From contig DAOUOW010000003.1 in the NCBI GenBank assembly GCA_030626475.1, positions 1 through 51,056 of the forward strand: 51,056 nt of DNA. Reading direction: 5' to 3'. Both the position numbers and the translations under genes were made by a program. The notes under the pieces are model-generated. The model saw nothing but the letters and a program-made list of their open reading frames with translations, was not told the DNA's origin and did no database searches. Positions 37,540-51,056 of the stretch are shown piece after piece; position 1 is the first letter of the stretch, and each line of letters starts with the position of its first letter. The stretch is from Chloroflexota bacterium (GTDB lineage Bacteria; Chloroflexota; Dehalococcoidia; E44-bin15).

Positions 37540-40068
<2,529 letters not shown>

Positions 40069-42736: not shown

Positions 42737-43372
42737 TTAAGGCCCCCAGTCGGTGGTTTGGCTCGCCCCTGGCTCATAGGCGCGGTAGAGGCGACGGGCG
42801 CGCACCCTGTTTTTCCGGCTGTGCCTGGCTAAGGCGCGGAGGAAGGAAGCCAAGCGGTCCTGTCCCCAGGTGAGGTAGCTTTTCCAGGTGGAGCTGCCGC
42901 CAAGGTTCACCCGATTGGTGGCAAAGCTGGCCCACTCCACTGCGGCGTAGCCCTCAGCCCCTACAGCCACCACATCCTCAAGGGGCGAGGGGAGGGTAGA
43001 GGTGGCTTCATCCAGGGTATGGAGCTTGCCGTAGTAGATATCTACCTCTTCCCCCTCACCCGGAGTTCTATCGGTGAGCAGGGTCAGGGTATCGCCCCAG
43101 AGGCTGAAGCGAATGTATTGCGGCGGGTACTGCCCCGTGGGGTACTCCACGGCCTCGATGGCAACCAGGTCGCTGAGGCTGGAGATGGAAAGATCTCGGC
43201 TGCCGGCGGTGGTATACAGGGCGGCCTTGGTCTCAATGGGAACGGCGATGCTCAACTCCCTCACCGCGTGTTCGATGTGGCGATTCAGCTCCTCATCTGT
43301 CCAGCGATAATTGTTGGCATCCTCGTCATGCAGGTCCTGGCGCACCCGCGCCCTCATCTCCGCCAGGTTCAT
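42737..43372 (-). CDS. Head-tail adaptor-like protein
   Basis: MNLAEMRARVRQDLHDED...RWTDEELNRHI helical start typical of connector proteins. Confidence 0.6.
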   Translation of the reverse strand: MNLAEMRARVRQDLHDEDANNYRWTDEELNRHIEHAVRELSIAVPIETKAALYTTAGSRDLSISSLSDLVAIEAVEYPTGQYPPQYIRFSLWGDTLTLLTDRTPGEGEEVDIYYGKLHTLDEATSTLPSPLEDVVAVGAEGYAAVEWASFATNRVNLGGSSTWKSYLTWGQDRLASFLRALARHSRKNRVRARRLYRAYEPGASQTTDWGP

Positions 43373-43535
43373 ATCTCCTCCTTTGCGGCGCTATCAACCG
43401 AAGCTCCCCTGCCCTACATGAGGGACACTCCCCTGCCTTCAGCTCACGGATTTCAGGGAAATGTAGCCTTGCCGTATCCTCGGTCATTTCAAAATCCTGG
43501 GTATAACCGCAATTGGGACAACTCCAGGTGGTCAT
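43326..43535 (-). CDS. Small zinc-ribbon protein
   Basis: CPNC...CPSC. Confidence 0.5.
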   Translation of the reverse strand: MTTWSCPNCGYTQDFEMTEDTARLHFPEIRELKAGECPSCRAGELRLIAPQRRRYEPGGDEGAGAPGPA

Positions 43536-43771
43536 GGCACCTCCTCTAGAGCTGGCATCGTTTCTGGAGTTATGTCCATTCCCTTCTCTTTAACCGCCAG
43601 CCCTTTGCCTATCGCGTGCTCATTTAAGCGCCTCTGTTCATCAGGTGACAGTTGTGGCTCAAACTCCAGGATTATCTCATCGCCTGATTGGATAATGGCT
43701 TGAGGCGCCCTGCCGATGGCCGCTTCCATCTCTTGCCAGATGTCTTGCTTGATGAGTTTGTATCGCATCAT
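43532..43771 (-). CDS. Hypothetical protein (possible fibre chaperone)
   Basis: Overlapping stop/start with fibre gene. Confidence 0.5.
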   Translation of the reverse strand: MMRYKLIKQDIWQEMEAAIGRAPQAIIQSGDEIILEFEPQLSPDEQRRLNEHAIGKGLAVKEKGMDITPETMPALEEVP

Positions 43772-45417
43772 CGATCCCTTTCATACGCGATTCTGCCCAA
43801 CCGCATATATTTGTTGGCAGCTTCGTTTGTCGTAAAGCCCATGTTCAGACGATACTGACCCGCCGCCGGCAAATTGTCGGTATGGGTTACTTTCAGCACA
43901 CCATCTACGTAGAACTTAACGTTGGTCCCCTGGGTCACCACCGCTCTAAGCACTGTATGCTGACTGCCTGACGATATATTGACCCCTGTGTCGGTGATCT
44001 TCTGGGTAGTGTCGTCTCCATTGCTGGCGTAGAGGTCGCCGTTCACGATCTTAAACCCAAAATGGTTATCCGTTTCCGTAGGAGGCGCGTTAGTGTTCTG
44101 ACACTGATGGAGGTAGGTGGTCTGATTTGCAACGCTGATGGTGAAGCTATAAAGCAGCCACTCCACAGTGGTAACTTTCCCTGTCTCCACTAACCTGTAA
44201 ATATCACATTTGGCATACAGGTATGCTTTGTTCCCTGAGACGTTGCCAGTCTTTAAGTAGATATTGTGGCCATCAGCACTTATGGAACCGCCTGTGTCGA
44301 TAGTGCTCGTAAAGCCGTCCTTGCTCACCCAGCACAGGATTTCTCTGAACTTATCGAAGAAATCAAAAGAGCCACCGCCATCAACGTCTGCCCAAACTGG
44401 GTTCGCTCCGGCACCCTGGGTCTTGAGGAACTGACCAGAGGTACCAGCGCCAAGCCTTGTCGGCCCGGCGGCATCCCTGATTAAGATATCGCCCTGGGTG
44501 GTGAGGACACCACCAAGCCTGGCGGCGGGGAGATTTCCCGTGGTGAGTTCCGAGGCATCTACGGTCTTTTCATGGTGGTCGGACGCTCCGATCCCGGTCA
44601 GGCTTGAGTGAGCCCGCTCCGTCAGGTTTGCCAGAGCATCGTGGGGAACAACGGTGCCCAGGGGGTGGCGCTCAGTGGTATCGTGCCGAGAGGTATTGAG
44701 ATATTGAGTGTGGTCATCATCCCCCAGGCCGTCCAGCGCCAGCCCATGATCCAGCTTGCCTCCAGTCCCACCTCCAGATGATTGGTGGGTATGGTCTTTC
44801 GGCTTCTGGAGATCGGCAAGCTCACCGCTCAACCCCTCCACGCTGATCTCATCAGCACCGCCGTCCTGGTGGCTTGCGGCGTGTGCCTTAGGGTCATGGT
44901 CCTGGACTTGCGCCTTTGTCGCGCCCTCCAACTTCTCGGAGTTGTCCACAATGCCGTCATCATCGGTATCATAGACGGATTTGAGCATGTCTCCGCCACC
45001 AGCCGGGGTTTTCGGCTTCCACTTGCTGGTAGTCTGCTCCCATGTCACCACCTGCCCATCGGCAGGTGCGCCGCTATCGAGGTCTCTTCCCTGGAGCTTC
45101 ACCGCATCATGTTCGAGATCGGTGATCTCACTTTCAGTATGCGTATGAGCTTTAGGGTCATGGTTCTGGACTTGCGCCTTTGTGCTCCCCTCCAGCTTCT
45201 CGGAGTTGTCCACAATGCCGTCATCATCGGTATCATAGACGCTCTTGAGCATATCGCCCCCACCGCTGGGGGTGTCAAATTCCAGGGCGTTCTCCGCGGC
45301 GTGCACCTTGGCATATTTGCCCCCCTCCCCCGCATAGCTACCGGGTGTATCGGAGAGTCCCAGGAATTCGGTGACGCCGCCTTCAGCGTATCCCTCACCG
45401 GCAAGTCTTAGTGCCAT
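43768..45417 (-). CDS. Fibre protein (head or tail) with repeated His/Asp-rich shaft and C-terminal beta-sandwich
   Basis: FLGLSDTPGSYAG motif, HxH repeats, GTSGQFLKTQGAGANPVW, lectin-like tip. Confidence 0.7.
   Translation of the reverse strand: MALRLAGEGYAEGGVTEFLGLSDTPGSYAGEGGKYAKVHAAENALEFDTPSGGGDMLKSVYDTDDDGIVDNSEKLEGSTKAQVQNHDPKAHTHTESEITDLEHDAVKLQGRDLDSGAPADGQVVTWEQTTSKWKPKTPAGGGDMLKSVYDTDDDGIVDNSEKLEGATKAQVQDHDPKAHAASHQDGGADEISVEGLSGELADLQKPKDHTHQSSGGGTGGKLDHGLALDGLGDDDHTQYLNTSRHDTTERHPLGTVVPHDALANLTERAHSSLTGIGASDHHEKTVDASELTTGNLPAARLGGVLTTQGDILIRDAAGPTRLGAGTSGQFLKTQGAGANPVWADVDGGGSFDFFDKFREILCWVSKDGFTSTIDTGGSISADGHNIYLKTGNVSGNKAYLYAKCDIYRLVETGKVTTVEWLLYSFTISVANQTTYLHQCQNTNAPPTETDNHFGFKIVNGDLYASNGDDTTQKITDTGVNISSGSQHTVLRAVVTQGTNVKFYVDGVLKVTHTDNLPAAGQYRLNMGFTTNEAANKYMRLGRIAYERDR
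44888..45264. repeat. Intragenic direct repeat, about 113 nt x2, offset 264 nt (44888-45000 and 45152-45264)
   Basis: Both encode GGGDMLKSVYDTDDDGIVDNSEKLEG.TKAQVQ.HDPKAH. Confidence 0.9.
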
Positions 45418-45428
45418 CTCTACCTCCT

Positions 45429-45812
45429 TTAACAGAGCACGTAGTCAGCGCTGAGGCTGAAGGATGTGCCCGAAAATTGGGTCACTTTGAGGAAGATGGT
45501 GGAGCCTCGGGCATCGGGCACCGCCAGAGCATAGCGACCGGTCTCGGTGAACTGCCGCGAAGCCCCGCCGAACCATATGGATTGGCGAGAGTTCCAGAAG
45601 ATGACCTGCACCGTAAGGCTGGTGAAATCTACGCCGTCAATGGTTAAGTCCAGGCGGCAGTATTCATAGCCACTGCAATCGATGGCGCCACTGGTATCCT
45701 CTGGGTCGGCGGCATCGACAGCGGTGACACCGCTCCGATGCAATCCCGGCTCCGTTGTCTCATAGACCGGACCCTTGGGGATCCCGTTCTCATCAATGCG
45801 TACATTTGCCAT
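45429..45812 (-). CDS. Putative capsid decoration/spike-base jelly-roll protein
   Basis: All-beta 127 aa protein right after the capsid gene. Confidence 0.45.
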   Translation of the reverse strand: MANVRIDENGIPKGPVYETTEPGLHRSGVTAVDAADPEDTSGAIDCSGYEYCRLDLTIDGVDFTSLTVQVIFWNSRQSIWFGGASRQFTETGRYALAVPDARGSTIFLKVTQFSGTSFSLSADYVLC

Positions 45813-46812: not shown

Positions 46813-47283
46813 CTATGTGGTTTGTTGTGTGTGAGAAAGGGCGTAGGCGATTTTTTCCTGTGGGGAGAGCGCCCCGAGATCGGGAGGCGTCCTTGCCGGA
46901 GCCCCGGTGGGTACCCTCTCCGCTTCAGCCTGAGCCTCAAGCTGCGTCTTCACCTTCTCCACCATCTCCCGAGCGGCAGCAAAGGAGGCCTCCACCTCCT
47001 GGGGGGTCTCTCCCGTGATCAGCTCTTGGGGCACCTCGGGGGCGGTGGTGAGGATGAGGGCTCGATATTTGGCTGCGGCGCCGGATAGCTGCTCCCTGAG
47101 CGCCGTCACCTCGCTCTCAACCTCCTGCTCCCGCTCCGCCATCTGCTGCTGAAGCTGGACCAGTGTCGCCTCCAGCTCCCCGATCCGCCTCTCCTGTTCG
47201 TTTTCTGTGCCCTCGCCCCCGCCCTCGCCCTCGCCCTCGCTCTCGGCCTTCATCTCCTCGACCTCTTTGGTTTCCTCGGTCAT
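46813..47283 (-). CDS. Scaffolding protein
   Basis: Acidic coiled coil, C-terminal GAPART...LSPQEKI..AL; immediately upstream of capsid. Confidence 0.7.
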   Translation of the reverse strand: MTEETKEVEEMKAESEGEGEGGGEGTENEQERRIGELEATLVQLQQQMAEREQEVESEVTALREQLSGAAAKYRALILTTAPEVPQELITGETPQEVEASFAAAREMVEKVKTQLEAQAEAERVPTGAPARTPPDLGALSPQEKIAYALSHTQQTT

Positions 47284-47329
47284 GTTCCACCTCCTTTTTT
47301 CGCCAGAAGGGTGCAGGTGTGCTACTCTC

Positions 47330-47359
47330 TTTATAGAACATCTGTTCTCATGCTGTCAA
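47330..47359 (-). promoter_or_regulatory. Capsid-operon promoter with LexA (Cheo-type) box in the spacer
   Basis: TTGACA (47354-47359), AGAACATCTGTTCT (47335-47348), TATAAA (47330-47335). Confidence 0.75.
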
Positions 47360-47375
47360 GGGAAAGATGGCACAG

Positions 47376-47404
47376 TTGACTATTTAGAAAGGGATGGTTA
47401 TATT
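47376..47404 (+). promoter_or_regulatory. Divergent promoter for accessory genes
   Basis: TTGACT-17-TATATT. Confidence 0.6.
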
Positions 47405-47460: not shown

Positions 47461-47913
47461 TTGACAACAGCCATGCCATTTGAGAGAGGGCCCTACCTGT
47501 TAGCGGCCTTCATTTGTGAAAAGGTATTGGAAGAAAAGGATGGGGTTAAATCGGCTATTCGCATCATCGACCGGGTAACACGCACCGTGGTAGACCCTAG
47601 TCCCCCAGAGAAGATGGAGCCTTTCGACCACGAGTTGACGCTGTTAATCAAGCTGAAGTCGGGCAACGCGCGTGGTGTTTATCCCATTCAGGTTCGCTTA
47701 GTGAAGCCGTCTGGTGAAAGCCCCACGCCCTTTGCTCAGAACGTTTTATTTGAAGGTGAGGAGGATCGGGGTGTGGACATTGTGATGAATATGAAGGTCA
47801 GATTTGACCAGACTGGTATTTACTGGTTTCATATATATCTTGGAGACGTGCGCTTAACCCAGATTCCGTTCAGGGTTAACTATGTGCCTCAGGTCAGGCA
47901 GGTACCGGGATAG
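47461..47913 (+). CDS. Hypothetical protein (DUF6941-like beta-sandwich)
   Basis: AAFICEKVLEE..GVKSAIRIIDR...FDQTGIYWF pattern; GGAGG SD. Confidence 0.6.
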   Translation: MTTAMPFERGPYLLAAFICEKVLEEKDGVKSAIRIIDRVTRTVVDPSPPEKMEPFDHELTLLIKLKSGNARGVYPIQVRLVKPSGESPTPFAQNVLFEGEEDRGVDIVMNMKVRFDQTGIYWFHIYLGDVRLTQIPFRVNYVPQVRQVPG

Positions 47914-48211
47914 TCTTATCGGAAGCTGTCGTAACAGCGGTAGCAACAGGCTCTATATCAGGAGAAGAAACCAGGATGGTATCCCTCTCGCTAATGAAAC
48001 CCTGAAGGTGCTTTTGGAGTGTTAGTTCATCTATTATGCCCTCGCCAAGTTCAACAAGGTCAGCATCTATCTCATTCGCATGGGCAATGGCTTTTTCATC
48101 GCCCGAGTCTAGGATTCTTTGAAGGTTGGACAACAGCCAGGCCTCCAAGTCTTGGAGGGTGCACTGGTCATTCAAGTAATCTCGTATATGATCTAGGAGC
48201 TCTTGATCCAT
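47894..48211 (-). CDS. Hypothetical helical protein (start ATG 48211)
   Basis: GGAGG SD 7 nt upstream; MDQELLDHIRDYL...LEAWL. Confidence 0.5.
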   Translation of the reverse strand: MDQELLDHIRDYLNDQCTLQDLEAWLLSNLQRILDSGDEKAIAHANEIDADLVELGEGIIDELTLQKHLQGFISERDTILVSSPDIEPVATAVTTASDKTIPVPA

Positions 48212-48545
48212 GACAAAACCTCCGCGGTCAGACAAGGTTAAATACGTATCCCGTAATAGTATACGTAAAATGTTCAACGAAAGTCAATATCCAGACATGA
48301 TAGCACGTGGACAGTTGGCACCGGAGCACCCCTACCTGCGCGATGACCACTTGAAGGAACCTGAAGAATATCAAGGGCCGTATTGTACACGTAGCCAAAC
48401 GATCCGCTATTATGACAGTAATGGCCAGTGGGTTGTGGTGGTTCACCAATATCTGCGCCCAGACAAGACGCTCGGGGCAAGTGGCATGCCAGACCCTAAA
48501 AGGTTGCGATTTGGAAACACAGTTTTCAGTGTTCCTCCCAAATAG
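48210..48545 (+). CDS. Hypothetical protein
   Basis: AGGAG SD; TRSQTIRYYD...VVVHQYLRPDKTLGASGMPDPKRL. Confidence 0.6.
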   Translation: MTKPPRSDKVKYVSRNSIRKMFNESQYPDMIARGQLAPEHPYLRDDHLKEPEEYQGPYCTRSQTIRYYDSNGQWVVVVHQYLRPDKTLGASGMPDPKRLRFGNTVFSVPPK

Positions 48546-48587: not shown

Positions 48588-49889
48588 CTATGTTCCCCCC
48601 TTCTCCTCCATCCACCGCTTGAACTCGCCCTCGGGGTCGTCCACCCCCAGCTCCTCCATGGCGCGGCGGCGGCTGTGAATCCCGGCCTCAACCAGTATCT
48701 GCTCCTCCCTCACTAGCCGGCCCCGGTCCTGGGGCAAGACCGGACCCCAGATTATCCGCGAGCGGTAGGGGCTGTAGCCCACGCCGGTCTTCTGCTCCAG
48801 GATGCGCAGGATCATCTCGTTTCGCTTCTTATAGACGGCGGTGCGGATGAGCCGCTTTCGCCTCACCTTCTGCAGCAGGGGGTGAAGCTCCATCTCCAGC
48901 GCTACCCCTGATAGACCCCTCTGGTTATCGCCAAAGCTGGTTCGCGGCGACTCCGACAGGTCGTGGAGGGTGCGATAGATGAGGTCGATGTAGTCCACGT
49001 GGAGCCTTACTCCGCCGCCCTGGAGCAAATCCAGCAGATAAGCCCTCGCCTTCTCCGGAAGCTCCCATACCGCCCCAGGTTGGACCGCGATGTCGGAAGC
49101 CTCCTCCACATTTTCCAGGACGGCGATGGGATTGCCCGAGAGCTCGAGGATGGTGGAGAGCTGGGACATGGCGCGGTTGAGCTCCTGCGCTGGCTCCTTT
49201 ATCGCCGTGATGTCGGAGACGCCCCAGAACTTCTTCGGCTCGCGCAGGTTGGGGTAGATGATGAACGGGATGAAGCCGTAGGGATTGGGTTTTCGCCTGA
49301 GGAGGTCGTTATCGATCCAGAGCTCGAAATCGCGGGCGGTCCACACCTCTACCACCGTCGATTCCTTCTTCCGGTTTTTCACCCCGTAGAGGAACTCCAC
49401 CTCGTCGGCGGAGAGCTGGTAGCGGCTGGCGACCCGCCATACCCGGCTCACATCGTCGCCCACCCACCAGGCAAAAAGCCCCTGGACATCGGGCGCCGAT
49501 ACCCTGATCCGCTGTTCCTCGCTGTCCCAGGTTACCTTGAAGCAGCCATCGCCGAGGATGGCGGTATCGAGCTCGGTATCGAAGTCCAGTTGCTCCAGGT
49601 TATTGCCCCCGTAAACCTGATTTAGCGCCTCCTCCGCTCTCCTCGCCCTCTCCTTGGCCTCGGTGGAATCATCAACCGGATCAACGACGAAGTTGAGCCC
49701 GCTTATCAAATAGGAGGTCGCCTTTTCCACGAACGCCTTGGCGTAGTTGATGGTGATGCGCCGCTCCCCCCGTCTTCGATTCCCCAGCCACTGCATTCCG
49801 TTATAGAACTCCAGATTCTCGCGATAGGCCCTGATGCGCTGAAAGTCCTTGCGCCCGAGCTGCTGTGGAAGAGAAATATTATTCGTCAT
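48588..49889 (-). CDS. Phage portal protein (SPP1 gp6-like)
   Basis: INYAKAFVEK, AILGDG, WGVSDI, SGVAL; between terminase and scaffold. Confidence 0.85.
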   Translation of the reverse strand: MTNNISLPQQLGRKDFQRIRAYRENLEFYNGMQWLGNRRRGERRITINYAKAFVEKATSYLISGLNFVVDPVDDSTEAKERARRAEEALNQVYGGNNLEQLDFDTELDTAILGDGCFKVTWDSEEQRIRVSAPDVQGLFAWWVGDDVSRVWRVASRYQLSADEVEFLYGVKNRKKESTVVEVWTARDFELWIDNDLLRRKPNPYGFIPFIIYPNLREPKKFWGVSDITAIKEPAQELNRAMSQLSTILELSGNPIAVLENVEEASDIAVQPGAVWELPEKARAYLLDLLQGGGVRLHVDYIDLIYRTLHDLSESPRTSFGDNQRGLSGVALEMELHPLLQKVRRKRLIRTAVYKKRNEMILRILEQKTGVGYSPYRSRIIWGPVLPQDRGRLVREEQILVEAGIHSRRRAMEELGVDDPEGEFKRWMEEKGGT

Positions 49890-50142
49890 GGTTCCTCCCG
49901 ATAATGCGATAAACAGTCCTTTTGCTCACGCCGAAGCGCTGCGCTAGGTTTTCGACCTTTAGCCCTTCCTTCTGGTGGAGGTGTACTATCTCCTTATTTC
50001 TCAAGTCCTTGGCTGTTTGCCTCCTCCCTGGCTCATCGTAGCGACACCGGGGAAGGGGACAGTTGAGGCACGAAGCAAATAGATCGCAGCCATCGTCCCG
50101 ATACCCTAAGTGCTCAGGAAGCAACTCGTGCTTCGATTTCAT
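49879..50142 (-). CDS. Cys-cluster plus helix-turn-helix protein
   Basis: C-x5-C-x2-C-x4-C then LAQRFGVSKRTVYRII HTH. Confidence 0.75.
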   Translation of the reverse strand: MKSKHELLPEHLGYRDDGCDLFASCLNCPLPRCRYDEPGRRQTAKDLRNKEIVHLHQKEGLKVENLAQRFGVSKRTVYRIIGRNHDE

Positions 50143-51056
50143 TTGTCCCCTCCCAAGCGACCTTTTGCGCTCCGGGGCCGGTATTCTGCCGCCTCGATGA
50201 GCAGGGCCAGGCTCATCAGGAAGTCATCGTGCCCCTGGTGGGGGTCAACATAGAAGTTCATCGTCTGGCTGGGGCGAAAGACGCTCTTTGCCCTTTCCAG
50301 CTCAAACCAGAACTCCTGACATTCCTCCGAGCCGTCGGCGGCATACATCTTCGCCCTTCCCGAATTTACTGCCGCCAGCAGATTGAACCCCAGCCTGGAT
50401 TTGCTTTGCTGGGTGAAGGGGAAAGGCGCAACCACCGCTTTGCCCAGGGCTTTGGTCAGGAAGCTGGCTACCCCGGCGCCGACCCCGGTGCTATCCACCA
50501 CCACACGCCGGCAGCGCCAAACGTTCTTCAAGACGTCCACCAGCTGGGGGTAGAGGGAGGCATGGGGTTTGCCCGTCCACCAGTAGTGCTCCACTATGTT
50601 TACCCTGGGTTGTTGGATGATCTCGTTATAGGTCGAAAAATCCAGCTCCCCGATGGTCACCACTGTGGAATCCTGCCTCGGTTTCAGGGCGCGAAGCATG
50701 GCATCCTCCCCCTCCTCCGCCTCCCCGGCGAGGTCAATCCCGGCAACGTAGACCTTTCCCTCCTCGGGAAGATGGCGGCGGCCATGAGCACCTTGAAGTT
50801 GCGCCTGCTGCTGAGGGCTGAGGAAGCCACCGCCGCCGTGGATCGGCTTCAAGCAATATTGGGTCTGAAACAGGGGATGGCTCTCCCCCAGCCTCTCTCT
50901 TTCGCCCTCTACGTAGCGAAGATAGTGAGGATTGTATTGTGCTACTTCTTGCCAATCAAAATGGAAATGGCGCTTTATTCCATCCCTGCGCTCCAGTTCC
51001 AGGTTGGTCTGCTTCACCTCCTCGAGGAGGGTGGCATCGTCCCAGGTGGTGCCGTA
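50139..51056 (-). CDS. Terminase large subunit, C-terminal nuclease part (5' end outside window)
   Basis: FQTQY, YVAGIDLAG, VVVDSTGVG, HDDFLMSLAL RNase H-type motifs; frame open to the window edge. Confidence 0.85.
   Translation of the reverse strand, partial: YGTTWDDATLLEEVKQTNLELERRDGIKRHFHFDWQEVAQYNPHYLRYVEGERERLGESHPLFQTQYCLKPIHGGGGFLSPQQQAQLQGAHGRRHLPEEGKVYVAGIDLAGEAEEGEDAMLRALKPRQDSTVVTIGELDFSTYNEIIQQPRVNIVEHYWWTGKPHASLYPQLVDVLKNVWRCRRVVVDSTGVGAGVASFLTKALGKAVVAPFPFTQQSKSRLGFNLLAAVNSGRAKMYAADGSEECQEFWFELERAKSVFRPSQTMNFYVDPHQGHDDFLMSLALLIEAAEYRPRSAKGRLGGDK

Follow-up and report, generated by a model that had tools for sequence, protein, structure and literature searches.

The window, that is, the whole stretch of DNA analysed, is an entire contig of 51,056 nucleotides from the 1.12-Mb, 68%-complete metagenome-assembled genome (MAG) of a Dehalococcoidia bacterium; position 51056 is the contig end, and the contig terminates within a large terminase gene. 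The terminase ORF and the ensuing HTH and portal ORFs overlap as one packaging operon, which is followed on the same strand by a capsid operon encoding a scaffold-like protein, an HK97-fold major capsid protein, four accessory structural proteins, a head-tail adaptor, and three tail-tip proteins, the last of which directly abuts the host gyrB gene (Table 1). The scaffold-like protein did not return any Pfam or PHROG match, and its presumed scaffold role is drawn from its position and composition. Likewise, Pfam, PHROG, and PDB-sequence searches assigned no function to it or to the 659-, 118-, and 70-residue tail-tip proteins. Neither a tRNA nor an integrase gene is present within the window. 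Between the portal and scaffold-like genes, a joint of ~1.3 kb (47461-48545) holds the DUF6941 gene and overlapping ORFs of 111 and 127 residues that are not conserved in relatives. In genome G042, 5.5 kb of other genes occupy this joint, which seems to be an insertion hotspot.

Table 1. Features of the particle gene set and its promoter region (positions are those of the window)
Feature	Position	Strand	Remarks
Packaging operon	48588-51056	-	Terminase, HTH, and portal ORFs
Large terminase	50139-51056	-	Truncated at the contig end
Mor-like HTH "late transcriptional activator", 87 aa	49879-50142	-	PHROG families (1e-6); Pfam Mor just below cut-off
Portal	48588-49889	-	Packaging operon
DUF6941 gene	47461-47913	+	Variable portal-scaffold insert; homologue in 1/80 loci
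Divergent promoter TTGACT-17-TATATT	47376-47404	+	Consensus scan; drives the DUF6941 gene; context, outside the system
Upstream element TGTGCCAT (consensus TG.GACAT)	47367-47374	-	~8 nt 5' of the -35; capsid and packaging promoters
-35 hexamer TTGACA, capsid-operon promoter	47354-47359	-	TTGAC motif kept in 57 aligned promoters
Putative LexA (Cheo-type) operator AGAACATCTGTTCT	47335-47348	.	Palindromic; 20.7 bits; kept in orthologous promoters
-10 hexamer TATAAA	47330-47335	-	Read on the sequence; 18-nt spacer to the -35
Scaffold-like protein, 156 aa	46813-47283	-	Acidic, helix-rich; first operon gene; homologues before the capsid gene in 43/80 loci
HK97-fold major capsid protein, 295 aa	45869-46756	-	phrog_212 at 6e-72; PF05065
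Four accessory structural genes	43326-45812	-	ORFs; found in some relatives only
Accessory, 127 aa	45429-45812	-	ORF
Accessory, 549 aa	43768-45417	-	Weak tail/virion PHROG matches
Accessory, 79 aa	43532-43771	-	ORF
Accessory, 69 aa, zinc-ribbon-like	43326-43535	-	ORF
Head-tail adaptor, SU10 adaptor family	42737-43372	-	PF24175 at 9e-9; kept in 64/80 loci
Tail-tip, 118 aa	42370-42726	-	ORF
Tail-tip, 659 aa	40394-42373	-	Kept in 52/80 loci
Tail-tip, 70 aa	40182-40394	-	Kept in 45/80 loci; last particle gene
Host gyrB	38128-40062	-	Abuts the last tail gene

The first-pass annotation of this DNA had reported a perfect LexA box lying between the -35 and -10 hexamers of the capsid-operon promoter. 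The palindrome AGAACATCTGTTCT is indeed found at this place, and its GAAC-N4-GTTC core (47336-47347) is the sole occurrence of this motif in the 51-kb window. On the minus strand, the region reads TGTGCCAT-CTTTCCC-TTGACA-GCATGA-GAACAGATGTTC-TATAAA-(36 nt)-AGGAGGTG-GAAC-ATG: the TTGACA hexamer is followed by 6 nt, the 12-nt core box, and the TATAAA hexamer, and positions 47330-47359 are the exact span from the -35 to the -10. The first T of the TATAAA hexamer is also the last base of the 14-mer operator. The Shine-Dalgarno sequence AGGAGGTG precedes the ATG of the scaffold-like gene at 47283, which is located 52 nt from the box. A consensus promoter scanner missed this minus-strand promoter because its -10 is devoid of the usual final T, as is that of the same-genus locus L011, and we retained it because it is conserved in orthologous loci. 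Transcription is predicted to start near 47323. The position of the operator within the predicted promoter, in the spacer and touching the -10, would suit interference with RNA polymerase, and the box lies 27 nt outside the divergent plus-strand promoter. Upstream of the -35, the TG.GACAT element, also present at the equivalent place in loci L011-L090 and L121-L130, is missing from the lexA and dinB promoters; it persists in promoters with a -35 decayed to TTCCC or TTGCC, and may represent an activator site.

The bare core motif carries little information on its own. It is expected 0.49 times per window, 40 of 100 shuffled windows contain it at least once, and the whole 1.12-Mb genome holds 11 copies as compared with ~16 expected, so that its occurrence is not significant in either the window or the genome. 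For this reason, we relied on a matrix built from independent lexA sites. A perfect GAAC-N4-GTTC is located 19-31 nt upstream of lexA in 8 of 10 relatives, and the box or a one-mismatch variant of it, mostly GAAC-N4-GTAC, is located 27-137 nt upstream of lexA in all 24 further capsid-carrying genomes. The symmetric position weight matrix trained solely on 32 such lexA-upstream boxes of relatives has the consensus ATAGAACATATGTTCTAT. With this matrix, the capsid-promoter site scores 20.7 bits, more than any of the training sites (12.0-20.1 bits), and ranks second in its genome, between a site at C4:38299 (21.2 bits) and one at C58:28014 (19.6 bits). For shuffled windows (200 shuffles), the best score has its median at 12.5 bits and its 95th percentile at 17.5, and peaks at 21.5; 20.7 bits is reached by at most 1 of 200 shuffles and, in a filtered scan, by 0 of 300. 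The score of the extended site is therefore significant.

The C58:28014 box is directly upstream of dinB, encoding DNA polymerase IV (PF00817 at 5e-50), while the C4:38299 box precedes a gene for a 182-residue protein, and a high-scoring box just upstream of this gene is kept in 11 of 11 relatives examined. The presence of dinB and of this conserved gene among the top matches indicates that the matrix finds real regulon members. The next match, at 14.7 bits, is intragenic, and the lower ones on contigs C42, C41, C38/C33, C26, and C45 were dismissed as intragenic or located at contig ends. Within the 1.12 Mb assembled, dinB, the 182-residue protein gene, and the particle operon appear to be the only members of the LexA regulon. 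The 182-residue protein (C4:38299-38875; locus L214:1473-2046) is encoded between gatB and pcm and matches phrog_27776 at 4e-23, with no Pfam domain above cut-off and no PDB relative. Its box, the best in the genome, is just downstream of a TTGACA-17-TATAAT promoter, those of relatives being located 28-87 nt upstream of the gene. The distribution of this gene does not track that of the capsid gene; it is apparently a conserved SOS gene of Dehalococcoidia that is still uncharacterised.

The annotation had also taken GAAC-N4-GTTC to be the operator of Gram-positive and Dehalococcoides LexA, and the recurrence of the same motif upstream of relatives' lexA genes and of the source genome's own dinB agrees with it. 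Fernandez de Henestrosa et al. (J Bacteriol 2002) reportedly found that the LexA protein of Dehalococcoides ethenogenes binds the Gram-positive motif. LexA of B. subtilis uses CGAAC-N4-GTTCG, and cyanobacterial LexA the related AGTAC...GTACT (PMC3091678). The GTAC variants of Dehalococcoidia fit this relatedness between the cyanobacterial-type and B. subtilis motifs. A search of the 1.12-Mb assembly did not find a lexA gene; as the assembly is 68% complete, this is weak evidence against LexA. The recA gene is present (C11:6143-7400), and the lexA-trained matrix detects no LexA-like site upstream of it, its best score being -3.8 bits. Among the relatives, every capsid-positive genome that is at least 80% complete contains lexA, and two near-complete family members devoid of lexA are also devoid of the capsid gene, a small sample. 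Altogether, the palindrome is very probably a LexA operator, as judged from its match to these sites.

Among species-representative genomes, 358 relatives of the capsid protein were found; the best 80 are 72-98% identical and come nearly all from Dehalococcoidia MAGs. More than 6000 metagenome protein clusters match the capsid protein. In orthologous loci, the box precedes the scaffold-like gene, at -450 to -860 relative to the capsid ATG, or lies at -48 to -81 in loci without an intervening scaffold gene. Fifty-seven promoters stack gap-free on the consensus tG.CAt....C.CTTgaC......aGAACa..tGTTCTAt.cT, in which a TA...T directly following GTTC is kept. We considered a locus as testable if its upstream sequence reached at least 700 nt, which was the case for 70 loci, and searched the 870 nt before the capsid gene for sites of at least 12 bits. 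Such a site is present in 48 of the 70 loci, at a density of 0.775 per kb as compared with 0.034 per kb elsewhere; the formal P of ~1e-36 overstates independence, because the compared loci are related to one another. Absence of the box from orthologous loci, which the annotation had named as the observation that would speak against its proposal, is thus not borne out. The other 22 loci are devoid of a site of at least 12 bits, and some lineages exhibit weakened half-sites (GCAC or GTAC); with weak or absent boxes in about a third of the loci, LexA control would be common, not universal. The 25 perfect boxes exhibit 16 different central tetramers with invariant arms. Similarly, the source locus and its same-genus counterpart differ at 5 positions in the 100 nt from TGTGCCAT to the ATG, 2 of them in the central tetramer and 0 in the arms, while the sequence 5' of TGTGCCAT is unrelated even between these two loci.

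These data bear on two explanations that dispense with LexA. That a short palindrome arose by chance in an AT-rich intergenic region and is devoid of function is consistent with the expected frequency of the bare core and with its lack of enrichment in the genome, but the score of the extended site is hardly ever reached by shuffled windows, and the site holds the same promoter position in dozens of species. In practice, this conservation refutes chance, which we regard as scarcely credible. Alternatively, the palindrome may be bound by another regulator, such as the 87-residue Mor-like HTH protein or some other repressor, or be a mere conserved spacer, its likeness to LexA boxes being coincidental. 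The HTH "late transcriptional activator" does travel with the system, and both the TG.GACAT element and the fusion of GTTC to the -10 are features that the lexA and dinB promoters do not share. However, 32 lexA genes, dinB, and the conserved SOS gene carry a motif with which the arms agree, and a free central tetramer between fixed arms is the signature of a dimeric operator. Moreover, the site is centred near -18, in the spacer, a position that is typical of repressors and not of activators in bacterial promoters. Half-site variants of the capsid promoters and of lexA's own operator show no clean covariation, but GTAC variants occur in both, which also argues against a different protein. Binding by another regulator is consequently an unlikely explanation, and the identification of the box as a LexA operator is preferred.

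The annotation further held that LexA control of the structural genes is separate from terminase and portal. This part of the proposal did not hold, since the same promoter and box also precede the packaging operon of relatives and, in some cases, their activator-portal pair. The terminase-HTH-portal module is conserved in nine closed or large (near-closed) genomes, and in 9 of 9 a similarly designed promoter, whose LexA site scores 12.7-17.9 bits, is found 230-2040 nt upstream of the terminase gene, from which two or three small genes separate it. Among the closest relatives whose modules are contiguous, loci L019 and L028 contain three copies of the promoter and box, preceding the terminase operon, the HTH-portal pair, and the scaffold-capsid operon, respectively, and L013 contains at least two (22.1 and 20.1 bits). 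The same putative switch being present on the packaging genes, LexA control is not peculiar to the capsid operon. In the source genome, the corresponding promoter would lie beyond the contig end, and neither it nor the missing N-terminal part of the terminase was found in the other contigs of the assembly; control of its packaging operon is therefore deduced from the relatives.

Several observations concern the packaging module itself. The 87-residue HTH protein is found in every packaging module seen, with 40-77% identity, and its gene has its own LexA-box promoter in L013, L019, and L028. Directly 5' of the terminase gene, the 250 nt upstream encode a small protein with a C-terminal hydrophobic helix (...NGLVFLV.GAV.AQ...) in L121-L125 and L129, which could be a holin-like or a small-terminase-like component. 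In genome G043, the terminase-HTH-portal module (C1:1482215-1485486, locus L121) ends 1.4 kb upstream of lexA; the other genomes checked differ, and this closeness is probably a coincidence.

Whether the operator serves a prophage or a host gene set depends on the nature of the genes that it precedes. The case for a true prophage, in which a functional temperate podophage would use host LexA, and not a repressor of its own, at its late promoter, starts from the window itself, in which all modules, from terminase and portal to capsid and tail, are contiguous, and in which the contig ends inside the terminase gene, so that extra phage genes may be present upstream in the source genome. It is also consistent with the temperate tectivirus GIL01 of Bacillus thuringiensis, in which LexA boxes at the P3 promoter directly repress the virion and lysis genes (PMC6182141). 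In closed chromosomes, however, a single-copy portal gene is located 50-730 kb from the single capsid operon: ~457 kb in G043 (capsid operon at ~1.025 Mb, portal at 1.482 Mb), ~727 kb in G054 (~0.53 and 1.257 Mb), ~350 kb in G058, ~354 kb in G059, and ~53 kb in G060. Host genes flank the separate modules. Two acyl-CoA dehydrogenase genes are located 1-3 kb upstream of the terminase gene in G041, the closest large contig, and CorC and TilS are encoded directly beside the capsid-adaptor pair in G054. The adjacency of the operon to gyrB is kept in six related species with 74-89% capsid identity. The flanks examined revealed no integrase, replication, or repressor/lysogeny genes, and the gene set spans only about 11-13 kb.

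The evolution of the capsid gene also argues against a prophage. Over 24 genomes, capsid distances track those of the host LexA protein (Spearman 0.45, a value reached by 0 of 2000 permutations), the capsid has diverged less than LexA (24% versus 37%), and its copies are all intact at 295-296 residues. The dN/dS ratio of the capsid gene is 0.10-0.16 in close pairs, indicative of purifying selection, and the nearest capsids of cultured phages are at most 41% identical. In favour of a phage, IMG/VR classes capsid-carrying fragments as viral; these fragments are only 2-27 kb long, and no full-length viral contig was found in this database. The patchy distribution of the capsid gene, present in 23 of 41 relatives, also favours a phage, and some same-family capsids are more diverged (63-65% identity) than copies from other families (71-82%); taken together, patchy presence and non-monotonic identities point to losses and probably some lateral transfer. 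Broken genes were seen in a few genomes: in G048 (C1:628437-643985), ~15 kb separates two pieces of the portal gene, which contains internal TGA and TAG stops; in G053 (C1:2744109-2745443), the portal gene is fragmented into six frames; and the capsid gene of G023 (C20:149715-150785) is in two pieces. Judging from these disrupted copies, the particle system is being lost in some lineages.

What defines a prophage, namely a contiguous genome with an integrase or attachment sites, replication genes, and a lysogeny switch, was not encountered, the contig of the source genome ending in the terminase gene. In contrast, phage-derived genes inherited by the host without means of self-propagation, as expected of a gene transfer agent (GTA), are what the split modules and housekeeping flanks present, the upstream end of the source locus being missing, and their vertical inheritance has been long-term and under purifying selection. 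A functional prophage is hence improbable, and a host-fixed, non-prophage element is a highly likely description of the gene set, considering its gene content and distribution. A capsid-forming satellite of the PICI type was rejected for want of an integrase or replication module. The presence of a terminase and a portal led us to reject a tailocin and an encapsulin as well. The annotation had argued for domestication from direct repression of structural genes by the host SOS regulator; domestication itself is supported by the split loci, host flanks, single copy, and purifying selection, whereas direct LexA repression alone is no proof of it, as GIL01 illustrates. Combining the two lines of evidence, we estimate at roughly three in four the probability that a LexA operator controls a host-fixed, phage-derived, GTA-like gene set.

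Comparison with known systems delineates what this locus shares with them. As judged by its sequence, the operator is unremarkable among LexA boxes of the Gram-positive type: it has the same dyad as the Gram-positive LexA (Cheo/DinR) box CGAAC-N4-GTTCG, and likewise overlaps core promoter elements. It differs from this box by the A/T flanks of the local consensus (AGAAC...GTTCT) and by its target, a capsid operon instead of a repair gene, in a genome whose own recA is boxless. GIL01 resembles the present system in having a LexA box in a structural promoter. Its small phage activator gp6 acts at or next to the -35 of P3 (PMC6182141), and the upstream element and Mor-like HTH protein are possible counterparts of this activator arrangement. 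GIL01 is, however, a replicating and infectious linear-plasmid prophage, and its repression needs the co-repressor gp7 and tandem boxes (PMC6182141). Unlike GIL01, the present set is chromosomal, split, devoid of integrase, and class-wide, with one box per promoter.

The GTAs of the RcGTA type from the alphaproteobacteria Rhodobacter capsulatus and Caulobacter crescentus (PMC5026251, PMC9632790, PMC6363796) are likewise small (~12-15 kb), host-inherited, multilocus sets of phage-derived head, packaging, and tail genes. Both they and the present set are under purifying selection and contain no integrase or replication genes, a likeness established by gene content. RcGTA is siphovirus-like and controlled by CtrA, GafA, and quorum sensing, whereas the present set encodes a short tail and would have a direct LexA operator on each module. 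For the present set, particle production and DNA transfer are predictions. Work by Kuchinski et al. in 2016 is said to have found no more than an indirect action of LexA on RcGTA. The closest published podovirus-like case, here compared by description, is FpGTA of Faecalibacterium prausnitzii (~10 kb; PMC12946183), which resembles the present set by its terminase, portal, scaffold, and capsid genes, by a second distant locus, and by its Gram-positive-type lineage. FpGTA particles with ~9 kb of packaged DNA have been shown experimentally, and the term LexA has 0 occurrences in the FpGTA paper (PMC12946183). In PBSX of B. subtilis, in the R and F pyocins, and in the colicins, DNA damage leads a sacrificial subpopulation to make a lethal or phage-like product that the host encodes. 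Control of PBSX and of the pyocins is exerted by repressors of their own (Xre and PrtR, respectively), while colicin operons have direct LexA boxes and their products are not particles. Unlike in these systems, the LexA boxes here are located directly on capsid and packaging operons. No account of a Dehalococcoidia or Chloroflexi GTA, or of this system, emerged from full-text literature searches. What appears to be new is therefore a class-wide, split particle gene set in which each module would be under a direct LexA operator of its own.

With a LexA operator on a host-fixed gene set as the preferred reading, the following scheme can be proposed. A LexA dimer bound to the spacer, from about -25 to -12 and abutting the -10, would block the formation of the open complex by RNA polymerase. 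Upon DNA damage, RecA activation would trigger LexA self-cleavage, and the capsid/tail operon would be transcribed, the packaging operon being expressed in parallel. As a copy of one promoter-operator arrangement is present on each of the split modules, LexA would coordinate them as their shared switch despite their dispersal. The genes, encoding terminase, Mor-like activator, portal, scaffold, capsid, adaptor, and short tail tip, would most likely yield a short-tailed, podovirus-like DNA-packaging particle of the GTA kind, which may transfer DNA, kill other cells, or have another role. A second input is conceivable, if speculative: the 87-residue Mor-like protein might act at TG.GACAT, 5' of the -35. 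The persistence of this element in many lineages whose -35 hexamers are poor (TTCCC, TTGCC), together with a Mor-like activator encoded by the system, makes a two-step circuit plausible, in which LexA release would be followed by activation. LexA binding, damage induction, particle assembly, the packaged cargo, and the role of the activator are all predicted here from DNA and protein sequences. On these grounds, DNA damage probably switches on an undescribed GTA-like particle, the gene set of which is found across Dehalococcoidia. That this class carries an independently domesticated podovirus-like GTA, whose dispersed modules lie within an otherwise apparently tiny SOS regulon and each start at a copy of one promoter design (TG.GACAT element, -35, LexA box, and -10), is a more tentative proposal, to which we would give somewhat less than even odds.

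Only a few lineages have well-characterised GTAs, whose regulation is for the most part indirect and particular to each lineage. Here, a single cis-element would link dispersed phage-derived genes to the universal DNA-damage response, in a major lineage of subsurface, groundwater, and ocean environments that is abundant and mostly uncultured. The promoter-plus-box signature could serve to locate the remaining modules, such as lysis and tail-fibre genes, in any Dehalococcoidia genome. It also calls for caution in virome studies, as pipelines of the IMG/VR type score such host genes as viral fragments. If the more tentative proposal of a domesticated GTA is true, DNA damage would cause a subpopulation of Dehalococcoidia cells to package and release chromosomal DNA, thereby tying the SOS response to gene exchange or to template-based repair.
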